Assembly (NCBI GenBank): GCA_002780205.1
Contig: PEVQ01000190.1
Location: forward strand, 1 to 31,423
Reading direction: 5' to 3'
From: Elusimicrobia bacterium CG06_land_8_20_14_3_00_38_11
GTDB taxonomy: Bacteria; Elusimicrobiota; UBA8919
Length of the DNA stretch: 31,423 nucleotides
In this document: in pieces, positions 3,545-31,423 of the stretch
Layout: each line of letters begins with the position of its first letter
How positions within the stretch are numbered: the first letter of the stretch is position 1
Program-made: the position numbers and the translations under genes
The notes under the pieces: model-generated
Database searches by the model: none
What the model saw: the letters and a program-made list of their open reading frames with translations, nothing else
Told to the model about the DNA's origin: nothing

Positions 3545-4366
3545 ATGACCGGATTAAAAAAAATAATTTTGTCAATTTTCATAATAATAATTTCTCTGAT
3601 AATTATTTTCACAGTCGTAGAAAAATTCGTTTTTCCGTCAAAACTTTTGAAAAATTATGTACAGGGAAGAATCTCATATATTTCCGGAGCAACAACCGAA
3701 TTAAAAGACATATCGGTCGGTTTAAGCGGGATTAAACTGATTAATATTGTTATTTTTCTGCCGGATGTATTTGAATTAAAAATTGAAAAAACAATAATTT
3801 CTCCCAATTTATTTCCGTTTCCGAGAAAGCAGGTTGCTTTTAACGAAATAAAAATAGTAAAACCGAAAATTAAACTTTGGAAAGGGTTCAGAAATTTCAA
3901 ACTGAAAAAAAATGTTTTACATGCCGGCCACACATTAGTTCTAAGCAGATTAAAAATTGAAGACGGGAGTTTTTATTACGGCGGACTTGAAATTCTTGGC
4001 ATTCAAGTTGATATAAAAAATGCATCAATTATCGGCATATTCCCGATAGAAATATATTTTGATATGGAAGGTGTCGGAGCAAAAATTTCTGCTGAATATG
4101 ATTTCAAAAAACAGTATCTTAAAATAAATAACGCAGCCATTAAAAGCGATAAAAAAAATGTAATAATTTCAGGTGGTATTGAAAAACCCATGAATCTGGA
4201 TGAGGCGGAGTTTGATGTCGTTGTAAAAGGCAGCGGAGAATTGTTTAATAAATTTTTTCTGTCAAATATCCGGCATAAAAAGAAAATTATCATTTTTGAT
4301 AAAGAAAATATAGAACTAAAAATTCACGGAAATCTTAACTCATTTCAAGTAGTAAATTTGCAATAA
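3545..4366 (+). CDS. Hypothetical protein with N-terminal membrane anchor, AsmA-like
   Basis: One N-terminal TM helix followed by a beta-rich region resembling AsmA N-termini (ISVGLSGIKLINI...EIKIVKPKI...RLKIEDGSF). The family call is tentative. Confidence 0.5.
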   Translation: MTGLKKIILSIFIIIISLIIIFTVVEKFVFPSKLLKNYVQGRISYISGATTELKDISVGLSGIKLINIVIFLPDVFELKIEKTIISPNLFPFPRKQVAFNEIKIVKPKIKLWKGFRNFKLKKNVLHAGHTLVLSRLKIEDGSFYYGGLEILGIQVDIKNASIIGIFPIEIYFDMEGVGAKISAEYDFKKQYLKINNAAIKSDKKNVIISGGIEKPMNLDEAEFDVVVKGSGELFNKFFLSNIRHKKKIIIFDKENIELKIHGNLNSFQVVNLQ

Positions 4367-18522: not shown

Positions 18523-19407
18523 ATGCCGAAAAAAATCAATTTTCAAGATGAATATGTCTGCACTATAACAGGACTTGTTGCCAACGGTTTTCTGACTATA
18601 ATTAAATTTTTTGCCGGAATTTTCGGTCACAGCCAGGCGATGATTGCCGACGCCATCAATTCGCTTTTTGATGTATTGACATCGGCGGTTATTTATCTCG
18701 GCATAAAAATGGGTAAAAAACCCGAGGATGACGAACATCCGTACGGGCATGAAAACATAGAGGTTATTGTTTCATGGATTGTCTCTATTATTGTGTTGTC
18801 TACCGGTCTGTTCCTCGGTTATTCCGCTTTTCATACTATAATTGACAAAAACTACAGCCATCCTTCTTCTATCGCTTTGTGGGCTGCTATTATTACAATA
18901 ATAATAAAAGAAATACTGCACAGATACACTTTGAAAGTCGGCAATATGTTAAATTCACCGGCAATCAAGGCAAACGCTTTTGACCACCGTTCGGATGTTC
19001 TTGCGTCAACCAGTGCTCTCATAGGTATTGCCGGCGCCCGAATGGGAGATTCCTGGCTTTTTTTAGACCCCGTTGCAAGTTTAGTGGTGTCAGTTTTTAT
19101 TATGAGGACAGGCGTGAATATAATGAAGGAGAGCAACAGGATAATAATGGATTCTATTCCTTCTGCGGAATTCATAAGGGAAATAAAAGAATTTATTTTG
19201 AGGTATCCCGAAATAAAAAATTTTTCTAATCTACGCGTTCATCCTGTGGGAAGAAATTACATAATAGATGTTTCAATATTCGTAAGTTCGGATTACACGG
19301 TTTCAAAAGGGCACGATATAGCAACTAATTTGAAGGAGGCGCTGATTAAAGAGAAACCTTTTTTAAGGGATGTCATTGTACATGTAGAACCGTACTCGGA
19401 AGGTTGA
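18523..19407 (+). CDS. Cation diffusion facilitator (CDF) family transporter
   Basis: SQAMIADAINSLFD, KPEDDEHPYGHENIE, NAFDHRSDVLAS, LDPVAS and C-terminal GHDIA...DVIVHVEP. Confidence 0.93.
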   Translation: MPKKINFQDEYVCTITGLVANGFLTIIKFFAGIFGHSQAMIADAINSLFDVLTSAVIYLGIKMGKKPEDDEHPYGHENIEVIVSWIVSIIVLSTGLFLGYSAFHTIIDKNYSHPSSIALWAAIITIIIKEILHRYTLKVGNMLNSPAIKANAFDHRSDVLASTSALIGIAGARMGDSWLFLDPVASLVVSVFIMRTGVNIMKESNRIIMDSIPSAEFIREIKEFILRYPEIKNFSNLRVHPVGRNYIIDVSIFVSSDYTVSKGHDIATNLKEALIKEKPFLRDVIVHVEPYSEG

Positions 19408-19431
19408 TTTTCCAGATTTTTTTGCTATAAT
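19404..19431 (+). promoter_or_regulatory. Sigma70-type promoter with extended -10, upstream of HD-GYP
   Basis: TTGATT (19404-19409), 16 nt, TG-C-TATAAT (19423-19431). Confidence 0.65.
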
Positions 19432-19463
19432 GAAATCAACGGGGGTTTTCTAAAAAGATACAA

Positions 19464-20120
19464 ATGATAAATTTTATTAAACGACTTGTAATTATGATTA
19501 AGTGGTTGTTTAACGGGAGGACAGGCATTTCGCCCCATCACTCGCAGGAAGATATTTACCTTGAAGTTCTTTCCGCTCTCGCCGAGGCTATTGAAGCGAA
19601 AGACCACTCCACACGCGGTCATTCGGAGAGAATGGTAAAATTCGTAAGTTATGTCGCCAAAAATATGGGTATGACAAAACAGGAATTAAAGGATTTGGAA
19701 ATGGCGGCAACTCTTCACGATGTGGGAAAAATAGGAATTGACAAATCGGTTTTCCTGAAACCCGGGAAATTAACTCCCGAAGAATACGAGATTATAAAAA
19801 AACATTCCACAATAGGCGCCAACATCATCAGCCGCGTAAGTTTTCTTAAAGGCGCCGCCGAGTATGTCAAGCATCACCATGAGAGATGGGACGGCAACGG
19901 CTATCCGGACAAACTTAAAGGGAATGATATTCCTCTCGGCTCAAGAATTCTTGCCGTCGTAGATTCATTTGACGCTATGATGTCGGAGAGACCTTACAAA
20001 AAAGCGATGACGTTATCCGAGGCATTCGTAGAACTTAAAAAAAACAGCGGTGCGCAGTTTGACGCGAAAGTTGTCGAGGAATTTCTGAAATATGATTTTC
20101 AGTCGGAAAAATTATCTTGA
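19464..20120 (+). CDS. Stand-alone HD-GYP domain protein (putative cyclic-dinucleotide phosphodiesterase)
   Basis: AIEAKDHSTRGHSERM, LHDVGKIG, LKPGKLT, HHERWDGNGYP and ILAVVDSFDAM..RPYK. Confidence 0.92.
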   Translation: MINFIKRLVIMIKWLFNGRTGISPHHSQEDIYLEVLSALAEAIEAKDHSTRGHSERMVKFVSYVAKNMGMTKQELKDLEMAATLHDVGKIGIDKSVFLKPGKLTPEEYEIIKKHSTIGANIISRVSFLKGAAEYVKHHHERWDGNGYPDKLKGNDIPLGSRILAVVDSFDAMMSERPYKKAMTLSEAFVELKKNSGAQFDAKVVEEFLKYDFQSEKLS

Positions 20121-20143
20121 GTTTCACAACCCATACCTCAAAA

Positions 20144-21623: not shown

Positions 21624-22058
21624 ATGAACTACAAAAAATTTACCCAAGAAAAAAACGAAAAATATTTTGAAAAGTTCCTGCAAATACCTGCGAATAAAAG
21701 AATGATTTTAGTGCCGCAGTGTTTGAGAAATATAAAAAAATGCAAAGCGAAGGAGTTCGGGAGTTATTATCTCTGTGCAGAGTGCGGCGGCTGTAAAATA
21801 TGTAAAATTTCACAGGCGGCAAAATCCGCCGGCTATCTCGGGTTGAGAATACTAAAAGGCGGCAGCACCGTAAAAAAATTGGTTACGGAATTAAAACCCG
21901 GGGCAATTTTGGGCGTTGCCTGTTATTTTGAGGGTGTGCAGGGAATAAAAGAGTGCGAGAAGCGGAAAATTTCCGTATATTTTTATCCGCTGTCCAAAGA
22001 CGGTTGCGAAAATACCGATTTGGAATTAGATAATCTGATAAAATTATTAGAAGTATAG
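21624..22058 (+). CDS. DUF116-like cysteine-containing protein
   Basis: LVPQCLRN..KC, CAECGGCKI, ILKGGS, ILGVAC and GCENTD pattern. Confidence 0.75.
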   Translation: MNYKKFTQEKNEKYFEKFLQIPANKRMILVPQCLRNIKKCKAKEFGSYYLCAECGGCKICKISQAAKSAGYLGLRILKGGSTVKKLVTELKPGAILGVACYFEGVQGIKECEKRKISVYFYPLSKDGCENTDLELDNLIKLLEV

Positions 22059-22075
22059 GAAATTATAAAAAATCA

Positions 22076-22206
22076 AGCCACAGATTTTAACAGATGACAC
22101 GAAGTGTCACCCTGAGTGAAACGAAGGGTCTCGTCTTTAGCACCGAGATTCTTCGCCTTCGGCTCAGAATGACATTTCAGTGTTTATCCGTGTCCATCTG
22201 TGGCTA
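22076..22206. repeat. Nested palindrome: AGCCACAGAT/ATCTGTGGCT shell around a 70-nt TGTCA...TGACA REP-like module
   Basis: Outer arms at 22076-22085 and 22196-22205. The inner module (22105-22174) recurs at 22913-22983. Confidence 0.85.
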
Positions 22207-22229
22207 CGAAAGTTTTCTGGAGGAACAAA

Positions 22230-22727
22230 ATGGCAAGTGATTTTAGTTTTGACATAGTGTCGCAGGTTGACTTACAGGCGGTGGACGATGCGGTTAATAT
22301 TTCAATGAAAGAAATAATAAACAGGTTTGATTTGAAAGGGACCAATTCCACAATTGAATTTAACCGCGGCGAAAAAACGGTTATACTTTCTGCAAGTTCG
22401 GAGTTTCATCTCAAACAGATTAAAAATGTCCTGTCGTCAAAAATGGCAAAAAGAGGAGTAAGCCAGAAAGCATTGACGGTAAAAAAGACCGAGACAAATA
22501 TAAGCGGCGCTGTCCGGGAAACGGATAACATCGTCTGCGGAATAGAAAAAGAACTCGCAAAAAGCATTGTAAAAGATATAAAGACCCTAAACCTGAAAGT
22601 CCAATCGGCGATACAGGATGAGCAGATAAGGGTTTCAAGCAGAGACAAGGACGCCCTGCAGTCGGTCATCGGTTTTATAAAATCCAAGGACTACCCCGTC
22701 CCGCTGCAATTTATAAATTACAGATAA
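22230..22727 (+). CDS. yajQ: YajQ family nucleotide/c-di-GMP-binding protein
   Basis: SFDIVSQVDLQAVDDAVN...RFDLKG, VQSAIQDEQIRVSSRDKDALQ and PLQFINYR. GGAGG RBS supports ATG 22230. Confidence 0.93.
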   Translation: MASDFSFDIVSQVDLQAVDDAVNISMKEIINRFDLKGTNSTIEFNRGEKTVILSASSEFHLKQIKNVLSSKMAKRGVSQKALTVKKTETNISGAVRETDNIVCGIEKELAKSIVKDIKTLNLKVQSAIQDEQIRVSSRDKDALQSVIGFIKSKDYPVPLQFINYR

Positions 22728-22730
22728 AAA

Positions 22731-23221
22731 ATGAAAATTGAATACTACGATTTTGGAGAAGTTATTGTTGACAGTAAAGAATACACCGGCGATGTAATTA
22801 TTTATCCTAACAGGGTTCGAGCGAACTGGTGGAGAAAGGCAGGGCATTCATTGTGTATTGATGACTTACTACTCAGAGCGGAATATACTTTACATTGGTG
22901 AAGCACTTCGTCTGTCACCCTGAGTGGAACGAAGGGTCTCGCATTTTAACATCGAGATTCTTCGCCTTCGGCTCAGAATGACATCCTTTTCATGTAAAGT
23001 ATTTTATGCTCCCCTTAGTAAAAGATGTGATTTCGGAAAAACCGGAGATTATTATCGTAGGAACAGCTTTTGACGGTTGTATGAAAATTCCTCCTGAAAC
23101 AAAAAAATATATTGAAAGCCAAAACATAAAATTAATTATAGAAACCACAAAAAATGCAATTGAAATGCACAATGAACTTCAAATAAAACATATAATCACC
23201 TGTTTACATTTAACCTGCTAA
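22731..23221 (+). pseudogene. Mth938-like (DUF498-type) protein gene interrupted by a MITE
   Basis: 5' part MKIEYYDFGEVIVDSKEYTGDVIIYP..WWRKAGHSLCIDDL (22731-22868) and 3' part KDVISEKPEIIIVGT...CLHLTC (23021-23221). Removing 22869-23020 gives an intact 112-aa frame. Confidence 0.88.
22869..23018. mobile_element. 150-bp MITE with 27-bp imperfect TIRs and a TA target-site duplication
   Basis: Left CTACTCAGAGCGGAATATACTTTACAT against reverse-complemented right CTAAGGGGAGCATAAAATACTTTACAT (20/27). TA at 22867-22868 and 23019-23020. No coding capacity for a transposase. Confidence 0.85.
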
Positions 23222-24369
23222 ATTAAAAATAAAAGTAGAAATGATGAGAGAATCCCCGTTAATCCGCCCATAATGAAAGGCGCTGCGGGTCCGAGTTGTG
23301 TCCACAAAATCCCGGCTAAAAAAGATGCTGGGAAAAGTCCGATTCCGACGATTGTAGCGTGAAGTCCGAGTATGGTTGCTTTTTTATCCGTTGGTGAAAC
23401 ATCAGAAATAAACGCTTTTTCAATACCTTCCGTCAAGCCGATGTAAAGCCCGTAAAGCGCGAATAAAATCCAGATTGAGAGTTTTGCCGAAGCGAACGCA
23501 AATCCGAAATACACCAACCCGTAGAAAAAATATCCCATTACCAGTATTTTTTTTCTGCCTATTTTATCGGAAATAATTCCAGCCGGATAAGACACGAAAG
23601 CATAAACGATGTTATACACTAAATAAAGCAAAATTATGTTTGCCGCGGAAAAACCGAGATTTTTTGAACGCAGAAACAAAAACTGGTTTGAAGAATTTCC
23701 GAGGGTGAACAGCATCGCTATCATTAAAAAATATTTTAATTTTTTATCAAGATACTTAAAACTTTTAAAATTGATTTTTAGTTTTGTGTCTGTTCCGTGT
23801 TTTTGTTCCGTGTCAGTTTTGTGCTTTTCTTTAACGAAAAACAATACCGCAACACCCAGGATTGCCGGAACTACCGACCACAGAAAAACGGTTTTGTAAC
23901 TGCCGTGCCACGCTGTGATGAAAAAGTATGCAAGTAAAACGCCTGATGCTGCGCCGAGGGTGTCCATAGTCCTGTGAAGCCCGAATGCTTTTCCTTTTTT
24001 GCCTTCAGCGGAACTTTCGGCAATCAGAGCGTCACGCGGCGCTGTCCGAACACCCTTTCCAAACCTGTCAAAAATCCGCGCAAAAAGAACATAATGCCAA
24101 GTTGTAGAAATATAAAGCAGAAATTTTCCGATGCCGGAAAAGGAATACCCAAAAATCGCAAACGGTTTTCTTCTTTTTAATTTATCCGAGAAATAACCGG
24201 AAAAAACTTTCAATAATGATGCTAAACTTTCCGCTATGCCCTCAATAAACCCGATAATTGCCGGTGTCGCGCCCAAAGAAGAAAGATAAACGGCAATCAG
24301 CGGATAAACCATTTCCGACGAAACATCCGTCAATAAACTTGTAAGTCCGAGAATAATTATGTTGGACAT
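23218..24369 (-). CDS. MFS transporter
   Basis: Twelve-TM pattern; SLLTDVSSEM, GYFSDKLKRRKP, DRFGKGVRTAPRDALIA, FGLHRTMDTLGA and GIISDKIGRK. Confidence 0.93.
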   Translation of the reverse strand: MSNIIILGLTSLLTDVSSEMVYPLIAVYLSSLGATPAIIGFIEGIAESLASLLKVFSGYFSDKLKRRKPFAIFGYSFSGIGKFLLYISTTWHYVLFARIFDRFGKGVRTAPRDALIAESSAEGKKGKAFGLHRTMDTLGAASGVLLAYFFITAWHGSYKTVFLWSVVPAILGVAVLFFVKEKHKTDTEQKHGTDTKLKINFKSFKYLDKKLKYFLMIAMLFTLGNSSNQFLFLRSKNLGFSAANIILLYLVYNIVYAFVSYPAGIISDKIGRKKILVMGYFFYGLVYFGFAFASAKLSIWILFALYGLYIGLTEGIEKAFISDVSPTDKKATILGLHATIVGIGLFPASFLAGILWTQLGPAAPFIMGGLTGILSSFLLLFLI

Positions 24370-24392
24370 AAATTTTGCACACTCTCACTTAA

Positions 24393-24408
24393 TCATTTAG
24401 CTAAATGA
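24393..24408. promoter_or_regulatory. Perfect 16-bp palindrome in the MFS/clpB divergent region (candidate operator)
   Basis: TCATTTAGCTAAATGA is self-complementary. The binding factor is unknown. Confidence 0.45.
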
Positions 24409-24429
24409 GAAAATGATATTCCAAAAATT

Positions 24430-24458
24430 ATTATATCAAAAATTACTCTTGTTTTCAA
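24430..24458 (-). promoter_or_regulatory. Sigma70-type promoter for the MFS gene
   Basis: On the minus strand: TTGAAA (24458-24453), 17 nt, TATAAT (24435-24430). Confidence 0.7.
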
Positions 24459-24477
24459 TCTTTATTTTTTGTAAAAT
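24449..24477 (+). promoter_or_regulatory. Sigma70-type promoter for clpB
   Basis: TTGTTT (24449-24454), 17 nt, TAAAAT (24472-24477), 8 nt before the ATG. Confidence 0.5.
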
Positions 24478-24485
24478 AAAACAGT

Positions 24486-27071
24486 ATGAATGTTGAAAAA
24501 TTTACCATAAAGATGCAAGAGGCACTTGCTAAATCACAGGCGGTTGCGGAAAAACATCACAACCAGCAGATTACCGATTTACATTTTCTTTTTGCATTAG
24601 TTGAACAAAAAGACGGAACCGTTCCCGCAATTCTTGAGAAACTTTTTGTTGATATTTCGCATCTAAAAAAACAGATTGAGATTGAAATTGAAAATCTACC
24701 AAAGGTTGAAGGTTATGGTCAGATTTATGTATCGCCAGAACTACATAAGATTTTGGAAGAAGCAAAATTAGAGGCGTCAGCATTAAAGGACGAATTCATA
24801 TCAACAGAACACTGCTTCCTTGCGATTTCCGAATCAGGCACAAAATCAAAAGAAATAATTTCAAAATACGGCATAACAAAAGAAAAAACACTAAAAACAC
24901 TTGTAGAAATGAGAGGAAACATGAAAATCACAGACCAGAATCCGGAGGATAAATATCAGGCATTGGAAAAATACACCCGTGATTTAACCGAACTTGCCGG
25001 GAAAGAAAAACTTGATCCCGTTATCGGCAGAGACGACGAAATCCGCAGGGTAATGCAAGTTTTGTCCCGTCGCACGAAAAACAATCCTGTTTTAATCGGC
25101 GAGCCCGGTGTCGGTAAAACGGCCATTGCGGAAGGTCTCGCCCGTCGGATTGTCGCAGGCGATGTTCCGGAAATGCTGAAAAACAAAAAGGTACTTTCAC
25201 TGGATATGGGCGCTCTTATTGCCGGTGCAAAGTTTCGCGGCGAGTTTGAAGACCGCCTGAAAGCGGTTTTGAAAGAAATCGTAGCCGGAGAAGGCGAGAT
25301 AATTCTTTTTATTGACGAAATTCATACGCTTGTCGGTGCCGGCGCCGCCGAGGGCGCAATTGATGCCGCAAACATAATGAAACCGATGCTTGCCCGTGGC
25401 GAATTGCGCTGTATCGGTGCAACCACATTGGCCGAATACAGAAAACACATAGAAAAAGATGCCGCATTGGAGCGAAGATTCCAGCCGGTAATAATTCAGC
25501 CCCCGACGGTAGATGATACAATTGCTATATTGCGCGGTCTCAAAGAACGCTATGAAGTTCATCACGGCGTAAAAATCAAGGACTCTGCGCTTATTGCCGC
25601 AGCGATTTTATCAAACAGGTATATTTCGGACAGATTCTTACCCGATAAAGCGATTGATTTAATCGACGAGGCGGCTTCCCGTTTGAGAATAGAAATTGAC
25701 TCGCTACCGTACGAAATTGACGACCTTGAAAGAAAAATCAGACAACTTGAAATTGAAAAGCAAGGACTTCTTAAAGAAAAATCAAAGACGGAAGAAACGG
25801 ATAAAAAACTTGATGAACTAAAGAAAGAGAGAAAAAAATTTTCCGACCAATGGCAGAAAGAAAAAGAGGTCATTACAAAAATCCGCCGATTAAAACAGGA
25901 AATAGAAGAAACAAAATTAGAAGAACAGCAGGCAGAACGGGTCGGCGATTTGGGAAAAGTTGCGGAACTGCGTTACGGAAAATCGCGCGAATTACAAAAA
26001 CAGTTAAACGATGAAAACAAAAAACTTCAGGATGTGCAAAAAAATACGAAAATGCTAAAAGAAGAAGTTGACGAAGAGGACATCGCCGAGGTCGTTTCCA
26101 AATGGACCGGTATTCCGGTAGCAAAAATGCTTGAGACGGAAACGCAAAAACTTTTAAGAATGGAAGATGAACTGAAAAAACGGGTGGTCGGTCAGGACGA
26201 AGCGATTACTGCAATTTCAAATGCTATCCGTCGGTCAAGAAGCGGGCTTTCGGACCCGAATAGACCAATCGGCTCATTTATATTTTTAGGTCCTACGGGC
26301 GTGGGAAAAACCGAACTTGCCAGGGCTCTTGCCGAGTTTTTATTTAACGATGAAAAAAACATAATACGGATTGATATGTCGGAATACATGGAAAAGCACA
26401 CCGTTTCCCGTCTGGTAGGAGCCCCTCCCGGTTATGTCGGCTACGAGGAAGGCGGGCAACTCACAGAGTCAGTCCGTCGGAAACCGTATTCCGTAATTCT
26501 TTTTGACGAGATAGAAAAAGCCCATCCCGATGTTTTCAACATGCTTCTGCAGATATTAGACGACGGACGACTTACCGACGGACAAGGCAGAACTGTTGAC
26601 TTCAAAAACACTGTAATTATTATGACATCTAATCTCGGAAGCGAACTTTATCAAAAAACCGCTTCACAGGTTTTGGAGTTTATGGAAAAAGATATTAAGG
26701 AAAAACTGCTTTCCGTTCTGAGACAGTATTTCCGCCCCGAATTTTTGAACCGCATTGACGAGATAATTATTTTTCACTACCTTACGCTTGAGCATATCAA
26801 AAAAATCGTGGATTTGCAGATGGAACTTGTGAACCTTCGGCTTTCCGATAGAAAGATTACCGTTGAACTTACCGATAGAGCAAAAGTATTTATTGCCGAC
26901 AGCGGTTTTGACCCCGTTTATGGAGCCCGCCCGTTAAAAAGAACGATTCAGCGTGAAATAGTTGATGGTTTAAGCCGGCAGATTCTGTCGGGTGGAATAA
27001 AAGAAGGTAAAAAAATTATTGTAGACAAGCCGGCAAAATCGGAAAATCTTGAATTCAAAATAAAATCGTAG
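24486..27071 (+). CDS. clpB: ATP-dependent disaggregase ClpB
   Basis: 861 aa with an N-domain and two AAA+ modules ([13 protein letters not shown] and [15 protein letters not shown]), a long coiled-coil middle domain and the GARPLKR motif. Confidence 0.97.
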
Positions 27072-27151
27072 ATGGCTGAAAAAATAATTTTAGATTGTTA
27101 TGAAACCGAAAAACAGGCATTTCTATTATTGAGCCAATCAATATAATTTCC

Positions 27152-27180
27152 TTGAAAACCCGCCTAAAAAGTAGTAAAAT
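27152..27180 (+). promoter_or_regulatory. Sigma70-type promoter upstream of the MORN-repeat/apbE/rsx genes
   Basis: TTGAAA (27152-27157), 17 nt, TAAAAT (27175-27180). Confidence 0.6.
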
Positions 27181-27234
27181 AACAACATAAAAGGTTGAAG
27201 AATTATTATCTTCCAAAGACTACACATTATAAAA

Positions 27235-27924
27235 ATGACAAGAAAAAACTGTAGATGGATAATAATATATTTTTTAGCGGTACTCTCGGATATATCTTCG
27301 CTATTTCCTGAAGTGGTGCGAAAAATAACTCAGAACGGGAATATAAAAGAAATTTTTTTCTACAGCGATGGAAAAGAAATAGCGAAAGAAACAATTGATG
27401 AAAAAGGGAATATTCAGAGATCCGGCGTTATTCCCGACGGAATAATCAGGCAATATGATGGCAACGGTCAGTTATTTTTAGAGACAAACTATACAAAAGG
27501 TTCGCAAGAAGGAATTGTCAGATTATATTATGAAACTGGCAAGGTGATGCAAGAGGCAAATTACAAAAACGGTAAGTTAGACGGTAAAACCAGAGATTAT
27601 TATGAAAGCGGAAAATTGAAGGATGAGATAAACTACAAAGACGGAAAATTGGGAGGCACAAGCAAGATGTATTATGAGAGCGGCGAATTATTTTACAAAG
27701 TGAACTACAAAAATAATGAATTAAACGGAACATACAAAACATATTATGAAAACAGGAAATTAAAGGAAAAATCCGATTACAAAAACGGTAAGTTAGACGG
27801 AGTTTGCAGGGAGTATTATGAGAGCGGACAAATAATGTGCAAAGATACCTACAAAAATGGCGAAAGGATAAAAAGTAAAAAATATAATACCAAAGGTGAA
27901 CTTATATCTAATCAAGGCGATTAA
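27235..27924 (+). CDS. MORN-variant repeat protein (YwqK-like), probably exported
   Basis: About six 24-aa repeats of the form YYESG.L..E.NYKNGKL.G, after a hydrophobic N-terminus. Confidence 0.85.
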   Translation: MTRKNCRWIIIYFLAVLSDISSLFPEVVRKITQNGNIKEIFFYSDGKEIAKETIDEKGNIQRSGVIPDGIIRQYDGNGQLFLETNYTKGSQEGIVRLYYETGKVMQEANYKNGKLDGKTRDYYESGKLKDEINYKDGKLGGTSKMYYESGELFYKVNYKNNELNGTYKTYYENRKLKEKSDYKNGKLDGVCREYYESGQIMCKDTYKNGERIKSKKYNTKGELISNQGD

Positions 27925-27938
27925 CGATTAACCGTTTT

Positions 27939-28895
27939 ATGAAAAAAATTATTCTAATTGTTGCAGTTTTTTTATTCGGTTGTTCAGCAGTTAACAAAGA
28001 ATTTGCCGAGAAGAAACTCTTAATGGGGACTGCCGTTGAGATAAAAATTTGGTTTTTTGACGAGGCAATTGCCAAAAAATCAATATCAGACGCTTTTGAT
28101 GAAATTGCCCGGGTAGAAAATATTTTTTCCGTCTATAAGCCCGAATCGGAGATTTCACGACTTAATAAAAGCGGTTTGTCAATCGTTTCGGATGAAGTAA
28201 TTCAACTCATAAAAAAATCAAATTATTTTTCTGAAATATCCGGCGGTGCGTTTGATATAACTGTTTTACCGGTTATCGAGTTGTGGAAAAATTCAAAGAA
28301 AAAAGAGCGATTACCGTCAAAAAAAGAAATTGAGAATGCTATAAAACTTGTCGGTTGGAAAAATATTAGCATTGACGAAAAAAACAAAAAAATTAACTTT
28401 GCAAAAAAAGGAATGAAAATTGACCTCGGCGGGATTGCAAAAGGTTATGCTGTTGACTGTGCAGTTGAGTATCTCAAAAAAAACGGCATAAAAACTGGAA
28501 TGGTAAATGCCGGGGGCGATATAAGATGTTTCGGCAACAAAACATGGAAAATCGCGCTCCAAAATCCGCGGGATAAAAACGATTTTATCACAGTGCTGAA
28601 AATAAAAAACAAAGCAGTTACAACAAGCGGCGATTATGAGAGATATTTTTTTATTGACAAAACCAAAATTTCGCATATAATAAATCCGTTGTCCGGCTAT
28701 TCGGCTGATGAATCGATAAGTTCAACTATCATAGCAGATAGTGCGACAAATGCCGACGCTTTGGCTACGGCGACTTATGTTTTAGGACCAAAAGATGGAC
28801 TTAAACTTATACAATTGTACAAAGTCGCCGAGTGCCTTGTAATTGATAAAGAAAAGAAAATTTATAAAACAACGGGTTTTACGCATTATGAATAA
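27939..28895 (+). CDS. apbE: FAD:protein FMN transferase lipoprotein
   Basis: Lipobox LFGC, LMGT, SEISRLN, GAFDITV, DLGGIAKGYAVD, VNAGGDI, TTSGDYER, HIINP and ADALATA. Confidence 0.95.
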   Translation: MKKIILIVAVFLFGCSAVNKEFAEKKLLMGTAVEIKIWFFDEAIAKKSISDAFDEIARVENIFSVYKPESEISRLNKSGLSIVSDEVIQLIKKSNYFSEISGGAFDITVLPVIELWKNSKKKERLPSKKEIENAIKLVGWKNISIDEKNKKINFAKKGMKIDLGGIAKGYAVDCAVEYLKKNGIKTGMVNAGGDIRCFGNKTWKIALQNPRDKNDFITVLKIKNKAVTTSGDYERYFFIDKTKISHIINPLSGYSADESISSTIIADSATNADALATATYVLGPKDGLKLIQLYKVAECLVIDKEKKIYKTTGFTHYE

Positions 28896-30192
28896 TTTCA
28901 TCGGAGGAGTTCACCCTCCCGAATCAAAATTCACATCACAAATACTGACGGAGGAAATACCGCTCCCGAAAAAAGCAGTTGTTCCTTTATCACAACATAC
29001 CGGTTCACCTTCAAAACCCATAGTATCAGTTGGCGACGAAGTCAAAACCGGACAACTCATCGCCGAAGCGACCGGATTTATCTCCGCAAATCTGCACTCC
29101 CCTGTTTCAGGAAAAGTTTCTGGTATTTCCAGCCGTCTTCATCCCTGCGGATATAATTTTGATTCAATAATCATTGAGTCCGACGATAAAGACGAGACGG
29201 TTGAGTTTATTCCGCATAACCCCGAAAAACTTTTTCCTAATGAAATCGTTGAAATTATAAAAAATGCGGGCATTGTCGGGCTCGGCGGTGCTGCATTCCC
29301 AACGCATGTAAAACTTTCACCGCCGAAAGAAAAAAAGATTGACAGCGTGATATTAAACGGATGTGAATGTGAACCCTATTTAACCTGTGACCACAGAGTA
29401 ATGATTGAAGAGACGGAAAAAGTCGTCGGCGGATTGAAACTTATAATGAAAGTTCTTGATGTAAAAAACGGTTTCATCGCAATTGAAGACAATAAAGAGG
29501 ATGCGATAGAAAAGATGGAAGATGGAAGATGGAAGATGGAAGATGTTCAAGTCAAAGTGGTTAAACTTAAAACCAAATATCCGCAGGGTGCGGAAAAACA
29601 ACTGATTAAAGCCGTTTTGAAACGGGAAGTGCCGTCGGGAAAACTTCCGATGGATGTCGGTTGTGTAGTCCAAAATGTCCAAACGGCAAAAGCGATTTAC
29701 GAGGCGGTTTATGAAGGAAAACCGCTTTATGAACGGGTAATTACTGTAGCAGGTTCCGTAAAAAGGCCGGGCAATCTGAAAGTCCGTATCGGGACATCAC
29801 TGTCTGAAATTGTTGATTATTGCGGCGGTTTCGAAGGGGATGTAAAAAAAGTTATTGCCGGCGGGCCTATGATGGGCATTACCCAGTTCACGCTGGATGT
29901 TCCCGTCGTAAAAGGTTTTTCCGGACTGGTTATTCTTACAGAAAAAGAGTCAAAATTTTATGAACCTTCAAATTGCATTCGTTGCGGAAAATGTATAGAT
30001 GTTTGTCCGATGGGACTTGTCCCGACGGTAATTTCACGCATGGTTGAAAAAGAGAGATATAAGGAATTAAAAAATTACAATCCGCTTGATTGTATGGAGT
30101 GCGGGTGCTGCGCCTATGAATGTCCTGCAAAAATTCATCTTGTTCAGAATATAAAATTAGCAAAAACATTAATTCAGCAGAAAAAAATATAG
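28888..30192 (+). CDS. rsxC: Rnf/Rsx electron transport complex subunit C
   Basis: GGVHPPE, HSPVSG, AGIVGLGGAAFPTHVK, NGCECEPYLTCD, KYPQGAEK and two ferredoxin motifs (CIRCGKCIDVCP, CMECGCCAYECP). ATG 28888 overlaps the apbE stop. Confidence 0.96.
   Translation: MNNFIGGVHPPESKFTSQILTEEIPLPKKAVVPLSQHTGSPSKPIVSVGDEVKTGQLIAEATGFISANLHSPVSGKVSGISSRLHPCGYNFDSIIIESDDKDETVEFIPHNPEKLFPNEIVEIIKNAGIVGLGGAAFPTHVKLSPPKEKKIDSVILNGCECEPYLTCDHRVMIEETEKVVGGLKLIMKVLDVKNGFIAIEDNKEDAIEKMEDGRWKMEDVQVKVVKLKTKYPQGAEKQLIKAVLKREVPSGKLPMDVGCVVQNVQTAKAIYEAVYEGKPLYERVITVAGSVKRPGNLKVRIGTSLSEIVDYCGGFEGDVKKVIAGGPMMGITQFTLDVPVVKGFSGLVILTEKESKFYEPSNCIRCGKCIDVCPMGLVPTVISRMVEKERYKELKNYNPLDCMECGCCAYECPAKIHLVQNIKLAKTLIQQKKI
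29512..29545 (+). repeat. Heptamer tandem repeat (AAGATGG)x4.9 inside rsxC
   Basis: AAGATGG four times plus AAGATG, translated as KMEDGRWKMED. Confidence 0.9.
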
Positions 30193-30354
30193 CCACAAAA
30201 TCACATAGAAAAAACACAGAAAAAAAATTCAGTGCAATTCTGTGACTATCTATGGGTTCTGTAAAGTAAAAAATGGTAGCCACAGAATGACACAGAAACA
30301 TCACAGAAAAATTCAGTGCAATTCTGTGACTATCTGTGGCTAAAGTAAAAAAAT
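30190..30354. repeat. Tandem pair of TAGCCACA...TCTGTGGCTA-family palindromic units between rsxC and rsxD
   Basis: Units start at 30190 and 30277 and share an exact 29-mer, AAAAATTCAGTGCAATTCTGTGACTATCT (30223-30251, 30307-30335). Unit 2 has a perfect 10-bp terminal inverted repeat. Confidence 0.85.
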
Positions 30355-31284
30355 ATGAAATTTACAATTTCACCTGCTCCGCATATTAAATCGCAACAGA
30401 CCGTGAAAAAAATAATGCTGTCTGTTTTTCTGGCGTTGATTCCGTCGGGGATATGGGGTGTTTATAAATTCGGAGTCCATTCGGGCTATGTGATTTTAAT
30501 ATCAGTTTTAAGTTGCGTTTTCTTTGAATTCATTTCGCAAAAATATATTTTTAGAACAAAAATTAAAATTACCGACGGCAGTGCGGCACTTACCGGACTT
30601 TTGCTCGCTTATTGTCTTCCGCCGGATATTGCTTTATGGCAGGTTTGTATCGGTTCATTTTTTGCGATTTTTATAGCAAAGGAATGTTTCGGAGGCATTG
30701 GTTTCAACATTTTTAATCCCGCTCTGATAGGTCGTGCCGTTTTACTTTCTTCGTTTCCGACTGTTATGACAAAATGGCAGATTGATGGAATAACCTCGGC
30801 GACGCCGCTCGGTATTTTGAAAGAAAAACTTGTCCAACAACTGCCTTCATATATGGATTTGTTTGTCGGCAACATCCCGGGTTCTATCGGAGAGGTATCA
30901 AAAATTCTTCTTTTATTGGGAGCGATTTTTCTTTTTTATCGTCGGATAATTTCCTGGAATGTTCCGTTAACATTTGTTTTTACTGTTGCGGTTCTTTCAG
31001 TTCTTTTCAAACAGGATCCCGTTTTTCAGGTTTTGTCAGGCGGCGTAGTTTTAGGCGCATTTTTTATGGCGACCGATTATGTTACCGGTCCGCTGTTTTC
31101 GAAAGGGAAAATTATTTTCGGATTTGGCTGCGGAGTACTGACCGTCTTAATAAGAAATCTCGGTGCATATCCCGAAGGCGTCTGCTACTCAATTTTGATT
31201 ATGAATATACTCGTGCCTTTGATTGACAGATATACCAAACCACGGGTTTTTGGAAGTATAAAATCAATTAAAAATGCAAAATGA
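30355..31284 (+). CDS. rsxD: Rnf/Rsx electron transport complex subunit D
   Basis: SPAPHI, DGSAALTGLLLA, FGGIGFNIFNPALIGRA, DGITSATPL (FMN-acceptor Thr motif), GSIGEVS, FFMATDYVTGP and YPEGV. Confidence 0.96.
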   Translation: MKFTISPAPHIKSQQTVKKIMLSVFLALIPSGIWGVYKFGVHSGYVILISVLSCVFFEFISQKYIFRTKIKITDGSAALTGLLLAYCLPPDIALWQVCIGSFFAIFIAKECFGGIGFNIFNPALIGRAVLLSSFPTVMTKWQIDGITSATPLGILKEKLVQQLPSYMDLFVGNIPGSIGEVSKILLLLGAIFLFYRRIISWNVPLTFVFTVAVLSVLFKQDPVFQVLSGGVVLGAFFMATDYVTGPLFSKGKIIFGFGCGVLTVLIRNLGAYPEGVCYSILIMNILVPLIDRYTKPRVFGSIKSIKNAK

Positions 31285-31347
31285 AAAATTAAAAATTATG
31301 GATTTTCAATTTATCAAAACATTTTTAACTTTTAATTTTTAACTTTT
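31270..31347. repeat. Inverted pair of heptamer arrays (4 + 4 units, 22-nt spacer)
   Basis: AAAAATG CAAAATG AAAAATT AAAAATT (31270-31297) faces CATTTTT AACTTTT AATTTTT AACTTTT (31320-31347). Confidence 0.7.
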
Positions 31348-31348
31348 A

Positions 31349-31423
31349 CTAACAAGAGCGGAATATACTTTACATGGAAGATGGTGTCATGCTGAACTTG
31401 ATTCAGCATCTATAGACCCTGAA
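31349..31423. mobile_element. Left end of a second MITE copy (truncated by the window edge)
   Basis: TA followed by CTAACAAGAGCGGAATATACTTTACAT (24/27 to the 22869 TIR, last 21 nt identical), then a different palindrome, TGTC-ATGCTGAA-CTTGA-TTCAGCAT. Confidence 0.8.

Follow-up and report, generated by a model that had tools for sequence, protein, structure and literature searches.

How does a mobile element come to carry the same ends around different interiors? The question is raised by a 31,423-nucleotide (nt) stretch of DNA from Elusimicrobia bacterium CG06_land_8_20_14_3_00_38_11 (assembly GCA_002780205.1, contig PEVQ01000190.1), here called the window, in which two copies of a small repeat agree at their left ends and then diverge. 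The preliminary description of this DNA, made from the sequence without database searches, took the repeat for a minimal vehicle of two terminal inverted repeats (TIRs) that captures and spreads repetitive extragenic palindromic (REP)-like modules. We consider it very probably a non-autonomous miniature inverted-repeat transposable element (MITE) of the IS630/Tc1-mariner type with two recent subfamilies, which descend from a module-bearing ancestor through recombinational exchange, each version then having been amplified. As such it is a mosaic of interest, though as mobile DNA it is of an ordinary kind.

Within the window the 21-mer AGAGCGGAATATACTTTACAT is present exactly twice, at 22875-22895 (copy 1) and 31355-31375 (copy 2), and not at all in shuffled sequences. 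In both copies it is preceded by TA, CTA and three differing bases (CTC in copy 1, ACA in copy 2), and divergence begins immediately past ...TTTACAT. Copy 1 carries the module TGTCACCCTGAG...CTCAGAATGACA at 22913-22983, whereas that of copy 2 begins with TGTCATGCTGAACTTGATTCAGCATC... at 31385; the 21 identical nucleotides, the abrupt divergence and the two different hairpins that both start with TGTCA had all been reported in the preliminary description and hold on re-examination. The terminal repeat is 27 nt long and imperfect (20-21/27 matches) with an identical inner 11 nt, the left end containing ..GAGCGGAATAT.. and the right end ..GAGCATAAAAT... The window constitutes the first 31423 bases of a 38243-base scaffold (contig C211), and the right end of copy 2 cannot be read because a 68-N scaffold gap, starting inside that copy, begins at the window end; no fetched metagenome locus spans the site among the matches listed. 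Elsewhere in the genome, copies of the same type (type B, 32 right ends, at least 11 copies complete) continue in the way that the preliminary description predicted for copy 2, with ...GGGTGACA, a 17-nt spacer, ATGTAAAGTATTTTATGCTCCCCTTAG and then TA.

Copy 1 lies inside a DUF498/Mth938-like gene, whose two halves were scanned separately against Pfam. The host frame enters the MITE and is halted by a TGA at 22899-22901 (open reading frame, ORF, 22731..22901), an ATG at 23006 inside the right terminal repeat is in frame with the downstream half, and deletion of 152 nt restores the reading frame. The gene is uninterrupted in three same-genus genomes (G001, G002 and G003), to which the flanks of copy 1 align with 91-99% identity (92-99% for the 3' part) and with an overlap of exactly two bases, TA. 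Their empty site reads ...GATGACTTAAAAGATGTG... with a single TA, and in the genome under study (G000) GACTTA is followed by the 150-nt element and a second TA. The uninterrupted relatives and the flank overlap of exactly TA show an insertion with TA duplication, the element comprising 22869-23018. The TA duplication, which the preliminary description had proposed, is thus borne out by single-TA empty sites in three genomes, and the DUF498 knockout is precise to the base; ORF callers would list two small genes here. Two other element types were considered and rejected. An IS5 (IS1031-type) MITE with a 3-bp TNA/TTA duplication is excluded by GACTTA directly followed by AAAGAT in the relatives, as only TA is duplicated, and an IS200/IS605-type element inserting after TTAC is ruled out by the TIRs and the TA duplication (17/111 flanks read ATAC). 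More genes than DUF498 may be interrupted by type B copies, because removal of the element and one TA leaves open frames across the junction at C54 (~4155-4296; 64/129 codons), C61 (25525-25660; 64/42 codons) and C215 (~2247-2390; 34/118 codons). The neighbourhood of the DUF498 gene also varies in another way: G001 (C19, ~19317-20134) has, between this gene and the one upstream of it, an insertion of ~816 nt that is missing from G000, G002 and G003.

The genome itself is a 1.54-Mb metagenome-assembled genome (MAG) of 38% GC in 282 contigs, 90% complete, whose source runs are groundwater and aquifer metagenomes. The core ATACTTTACAT occurs in it 116 times, 114 of them as element termini, that is, in ~57 insertions, while a control pattern read backwards gave 0 matches in the same search. 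The left end is CTA(CTC or ACA)AGAGCGGAATATACTTTACAT and the right end, read inward, is CTAAGGGGAGCATAAAATACTTTACAT; each element normally consists of one left-type and one right-type end. Nearly all copies in the genome fall into two subfamilies, type A of 150 nt (16 left ends running directly into the A interior, 21 right ends) and type B of 136 nt (36 left ends, 32 right ends). Complete copies were collected from this genome and at least 119 metagenome contigs, the B consensus (136 nt) being built from at least 11 complete genome copies and at least 47 in metagenomes. Among the matches listed, the complete type A copies from both sources number 26 with 3 distinct sequences, and 85 of 86 complete copies of either type are flanked by TA on both sides. 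Within the genome, TA adjoins 110 of 111 ends and T occupies position -3 in 94 of 111, and the preferred target is therefore T-TA-A. Depth ratios in three runs suggest roughly 35-41 type A copies per genome equivalent, depth itself not being a copy number. Of 564 contig ends, 55 lie within the element, which accounts for about a tenth of the contig breaks of the MAG, and several copies hold scaffold Ns. Small (150/136 nt), non-coding, multicopy and bounded by 27-nt TIRs, the repeat has the properties of a MITE, and, judged by the near-identity of the copies, both subfamilies were amplified recently. The genome-wide TIR search and classification of interiors that the preliminary description proposed thus yielded two uniform interior classes, not one, with further interiors in other genomes.

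The parent family was sought by end-pattern scans of public genomes and metagenomes. A metagenome contig (L083, 842-1955) contains a TA-flanked insertion sequence (IS) of 1114 bp with one intact ORF of 345 amino acids, which scores 214.6 bits against NCBIfam NF033545 transpos_IS630 (cut-off 100) and contains Pfam HTH_33 plus DDE_3, the latter at 2e-32. Read as its reverse complement, the MITE right end agrees with the left end of this IS at 25/27 positions and with the right end of the IS at 23/27, and the LE-A left end of the MITE matches the IS left end at 22/27. Because target, ends and cognate IS agree, the sequence comparison supports an IS630/Tc1-mariner-derived MITE; the preliminary description had reached the same assignment from the TA alone, and a full-length IS of the kind that it proposed to look for, with near-identical ends, exists in this contig. 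Related IS occur in other phyla. A ~1.19-kb relative with its frame split by a stop resides on a Latescibacterota chromosome (L051; helix-turn-helix domain and DDE_3, 7e-31), and it and the copies in a Verrucomicrobiota MAG bear the same GAGCATAAAATACTTTACAT end as the MITE. In that MAG (SPRUCE 288; L040, L042, L048 and L049) four contig ends stop ~100 nt into an IS630-family IS, all four reading TA followed by ATCGGAGCATAAAATACTTTACAT and running into the same N-terminal coding sequence, which suggests a multicopy element breaking that assembly. Horizontal spread is suggested because one IS630 lineage with the same ends is found in Elusimicrobia, Verrucomicrobiota and Latescibacterota. The short spacer of the MITE plus TGTCATG weakly resembles the 5' leader of the L083 IS (..AAGATGGAGGCATG..), which may be chance.

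Between these ends, both interiors are TGTCA...TGACA double hairpins that belong to a repeat family of their own. Across the genome TGTCAYNCTGA is found 266 times, ~170 of them outside the MITE. The type A module (71 nt) has 87-93% full-length identity to four free-standing modules, one of them at 22105-22174 of the window, and the type B module (56 nt) has 86-91% identity to at least nine. In alignments with 30-nt flanks the homology ends exactly at TGTCA and TGACA, the flanks being unrelated, and the hairpin stems of the free-standing modules are maintained through paired changes. The TGTCAYNCTGAR half-sites number 254 in G000, 100 in another genome of the phylum (G060) and 9-34 in many relatives without the MITE, compared with 0-3 for controls. 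Because free-standing modules occur in relatives that lack the MITE, the module family is older and wider than the MITE. The second repeat system of the preliminary description is therefore real, its hairpins standing free across the phylum. Its REP-like character is another matter. The module starts with TGTCAYNCTGA and ends with TGACA, without a GTAG-type tetranucleotide, and no Y1 gene is flanked by modules, so that a REP identity tied to REP-associated tyrosine transposases (RAYTs) was rejected. Five Y1_Tnp (IS200/RAYT-like) homologues exist in G000 (C173:6833-7171, C64:3793-4086, C158:1700-2041, C215:2429-2701 and C88:105-341), and no TGTCA module was found within 1.2 kb of any of them except at C215, where a type B MITE lies ~40 nt upstream of the gene. 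A full-text literature search with the module sequence returned only chance matches in unrelated papers.

The arrangement of the interiors is what indicates their history. The two spacers that separate TIR from module are common to types A and B, in reversed orientation with respect to the unequal ends; the long spacer reads TGGTGAAGCACTTCGTC in A and, as the reverse complement, CCGTAAAGTACTTCGTC in B (13/17 match). Besides both G000 types, G060, L053, L087 and L165 have this long spacer in conserved form. Together with a GGGT hairpin it adjoins the right-end-type repeat in B, G060, L053, L087 and L165, and the left end in A. Because spacer and hairpin sit at the opposite end from the other lineages, the whole interior of A is inverted, the outcome to be expected if the inverted repeats of the element recombined with each other. 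Comparison of the copies thus has the two subfamilies differing in module variant and in the orientation of the whole interior against the unequal ends. The same skeleton is present in elements of other genomes (G060, L053 and L165). Since it is common to distant genomes, the module-bearing element is old, and A and B are not two independent captures by an empty shell. Two hybrid copies (C138 and C207) combine an A-type left end with a B interior, and two metagenome elements have repeats of one type at both ends (right-end type in L157, left-end type in L119), with flanks that do not match G000 loci. Hybrid copies point to recombination or conversion between copies. The exchangeable cargo of the preliminary description therefore survives in part: the interiors do differ and are homologous to free-standing modules, but the shared flipped spacers, the common skeleton and the hybrids speak against capture by a minimal two-TIR vehicle.

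We propose that an IS630-family DDE transposase supplied in trans would recognise the 27-nt imperfect terminal repeats, and that the element would be cut out and pasted into TA, preferably T-TA-A, with duplication of the TA. An ancestral MITE that already carried a module could have had that module swapped, or its interior flipped, through recombination or template switching during gap repair, for which the common TGTCA/TGACA edges and the 11-21 identical inner nucleotides of the terminal repeats would have served, and each resulting version would then have multiplied by transposition. The MITE would spread whichever module it happens to hold, with no dedicated capture function. It would thereby exemplify a mosaic in which the shell recognised by the transposase stays fixed, while hairpin modules of another family replace one another at exact boundaries and the interior changes its orientation. 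In eukaryotic cut-and-paste transposons, internally deleted Tc1/mariner, P and Ac/Ds elements contain filler DNA from abortive gap repair, and by analogy such filler is a plausible route to kept ends with a foreign interior. To our knowledge, filler acquisition of this kind is undocumented for bacterial IS630 MITEs in the literature that we cite.

Several observations weigh against this explanation. Matching ends were found on IS copies of other phyla or of unbinned contigs. Within the taxonomic family of G000 a single IS630 relative was found (G008), with 45% amino-acid identity to the L051 protein and ends that are related but different. In G000 itself neither PF13358 (DDE_3) nor tblastn with the L051 ORFs gave a match, in an assembly 90% complete in 282 contigs. 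Only the filled allele appeared in the contigs of four groundwater and aquifer metagenome runs, with no empty-site allele or excision joint, and in such contig-only data the lack of an empty allele is not evidence against mobility. Lastly, the route of module exchange is one that we infer from the anatomy of the copies alone. The missing transposase has to be read with the assembly in mind, which fragments at repeats and has about a tenth of its contig ends in the MITE; the helper transposase of G000 is unassembled, lost or foreign. A full-length IS was also sought in G009, G060, G074, G136 and G184, none of which showed inverted TIRs paired at IS distance, the end-pattern matches of G074 lying in coding sequence and being chance-like.

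Table 1. Features of the two MITE copies, the interrupted gene and a related free-standing module (positions in the window).
Feature	Position	Strand	Remarks
5' part of DUF498/Mth938-like gene	22731..22868	+	Pfam PF04430 profile positions 1-42
Left duplicated TA	22867..22868	.	Inside codon TTA of DUF498 gene; single TA in empty site GATGACTTAAAAGATGTG of G001-G003
Complete type A MITE (copy 1), 150 nt	22869..23018	+	Orthologous site empty in G001-G003
Left terminal inverted repeat, type LE-A (CTACTCAGAGCGGAATATACTTTACAT)	22869..22895	+	20/27 against right-end reverse complement
Long spacer (TGGTGAAGCACTTCGTC)	22896..22912	+	Conserved in all MITE lineages
71-nt TGTCA...TGACA double-hairpin module	22913..22983	+	87-93% full-length identity to 4 free-standing modules
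Short spacer (TCCTTTTC)	22984..22991	+	
Right terminal inverted repeat (ATGTAAAGTATTTTATGCTCCCCTTAG)	22992..23018	+	Includes ATG at 23006
Right duplicated TA	23019..23020	.	
3' part of DUF498 gene, including stop codon	23021..23221	+	PF04430 positions 48-98 (piece 23021-23218)
TA left of copy 2	31347..31348	.	T also at -3
Type B MITE (copy 2), left 75 nt only	31349..31423	+	Cut by 68-N gap
Copy 2, left end LE-B	31349..31375	+	
Copy 2, short spacer	31376..31384	+	
Copy 2, module	from 31385	+	
Free-standing type-A-like module	22105..22174	+	No MITE ends; 91.5% identical to MITE-A module, flanks unrelated

Could the modules instead be mobile hairpins that home to the centres of palindromes and entered a module-free MITE, possibly repeatedly, so that the MITE is the target and not the collector? 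We regard this as unlikely, although several features of the locus agree with it. At 22052-22217 lies a 166-nt palindromic composite with an unrelated GCCACAGAT...ATCTGTGGC shell and the TGTCA module of 22105-22174 at its centre. This composite is itself inserted relative to the three same-genus genomes, being absent at the orthologous site without a clear target duplication, and is a second kind of mobile mosaic repeat. Module boundaries are exact, the free-standing modules far exceed the MITE in number and diversity, and loci of other metagenomes (L055, L066, L082, L099, L103, L122 and L041) contain MITEs that have this left end but lack a TGTCA module. However, the unit inserted at 22052-22217 is the whole 166-nt composite and not the module alone, the MITE copies display no module-sized presence/absence polymorphism (86/86 complete copies listed are standard A or B), and neither a target duplication nor an enzyme is known for the module, the five Y1 homologues having no flanking modules apart from the one beside a type B MITE. 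A more far-reaching version, in which the TGTCA...TGACA hairpins are a new class of site-specifically exchanged DNA cassettes with an enzyme that cuts or copies at their edges, strikes us as distinctly improbable. If it were true, cassettes would be dropped into or swapped among palindromic shells of different origin (that of the IS630 MITE, the CCACAGAT shell and further ones), DDE transposition would be coupled mechanistically to a system of hairpin cassettes, and the MITE would act as a high-copy launch pad. An exchange driven by an enzyme and not by recombination would define a new kind of cassette system.

Active capture, in which a two-TIR vehicle repeatedly collects REP-like modules and each subfamily is an independent capture, was the reading of the preliminary description, and we now think it very unlikely. 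It would account for constant ends around interiors that differ within and between genomes, and for the match of those interiors to free-standing modules. Yet the flipped spacers common to A and B, and the skeleton that distant lineages have alike, already lean towards one origin of the module-bearing skeleton. Nor does G000 contain an empty two-TIR shell, as 57 of 57 left ends enter an A or B interior or are unreadable (N or contig end). We know of no capture mechanism for IS630 elements, which we count against this reading as well, and ancestry with recombinational exchange fits the sequences better than active capture.

That the free-standing modules are instead relics of the MITE without its ends, the MITE being the source of the second family, can be given very little credence. 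Ends do erode, as a decayed type A copy in a relative demonstrates (G009, below), but the spacers of the MITE are missing from free-standing modules, which are embedded in other conserved shells, vary much more than the interiors of the MITE, and occur in many genomes without a trace of TIRs, including G001-G003.

Scarcely any weight remains for a conserved structured RNA gene or regulatory hairpin in place of a transposon: the predicted fold is strong, both types forming one long hairpin (A -52.9 kcal/mol, z -5.7; B -47.6 kcal/mol, z -5.5), but it is equally good on the opposite strand (z about -5.5 to -6 on either), as expected of a DNA palindrome, copies stand in both orientations with several complete ones apparently within ORFs, the insertion is polymorphic with a TA duplication inside a coding gene, and Rfam 15 at gathering and permissive thresholds has no family for the element and nothing significant at 22000-23100, its sole match over the window being a tRNA. 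The RNA reading is refuted as the element's primary nature, which leaves room for a secondary effect at the RNA level.

The favoured IS630-type MITE can be set beside several known small repeats. RUP elements of 107 bp are non-coding, have TIRs like those of an IS630-family IS, insert at TA and are present in ~100 highly conserved copies (Delihas, 2008, PMC2229807; Croucher, 2011, PMC3049150). The likeness to RUP and IS630-Spn1 lies in TIRs that match an IS630 IS, in TA duplication and in a recent burst. However, the interior of RUP is simple and uniform and its IS is in the same genome, whereas the module inside the present MITE is shared with a second repeat family, its two subfamilies hold their interiors in opposite orientations, and the host assembly contains no transposase for it. 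Correia elements (NEMIS) of Neisseria have terminal TA, TIRs of ~24-26 nt and a long hairpin, with subtypes of ~107 and ~155 bp and four related forms (PMC2229807). They resemble the MITE in TA, long TIRs, hairpin fold and internally differing size classes, a comparison of architecture in which a sequence relation is not expected; their internal variation is a 50-bp indel and not a module that is also free-standing, and no parent IS is known for them, whereas a parent-type IS was found here. The closest described analogue of the same module in different shells is BOX of Streptococcus, built as boxA - boxB(n) - boxC, with boxE/boxF shells in S. suis, so that boxB occurs within two kinds of end shell (PMC3049150). 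BOX likewise has conserved end modules around a variable interior, but its ends resemble ISSpn2 and not IS630, and boxB varies in tandem number, whereas here a single double-hairpin module, itself abundant alone, is swapped for another variant. REP sequences and bacterial interspersed mosaic elements (BIMEs) of enterobacteria and pseudomonads are also mosaic intergenic repeats of hairpin units with stems kept by paired changes. They differ in their GTAG-type tag and their tie to RAYT (Y1) transposases, and BIMEs have neither DDE-type TIRs nor TA duplication; the modules described here are bounded by TGTCA/TGACA and do not flank the Y1 genes of the genome.

Of 400 genomes sampled from the phylum, G000 alone has the element in abundance, and the three same-genus genomes lack it. 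Another genus of the same family (G009) has the decayed type A copy mentioned above (L036, C80:18549-18684), which is 94% identical over 136 nt and still TA-flanked, 16 nt of its left end being deleted, and also a ~270-nt relative with another interior. Two complete copies are present in G060. A literature search for Elusimicrobia plus MITE returned nothing relevant. Other MITE families with the same left end occur in metagenome Ga0335070 (the L055, L066, L082, L099, L103 and L122 loci listed above) and in L041; one, ~105 nt long, differs in its right end and lacks a TGTCA module, and the other has an interior of C-rich CCCCC/GGGGG hairpins.

Two further repeats were seen downstream in the window. 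Between two Rnf-like genes, at 30193-30350, there are two copies of a CCACAGA / CAGTGCAATTCTGTGAC repeat, which resembles the shell at 22052-22217 without the TGTCA module, and an in-frame run of GAAGATG heptamers lies within an RnfC/RsxC-like ORF at 29510-29545.

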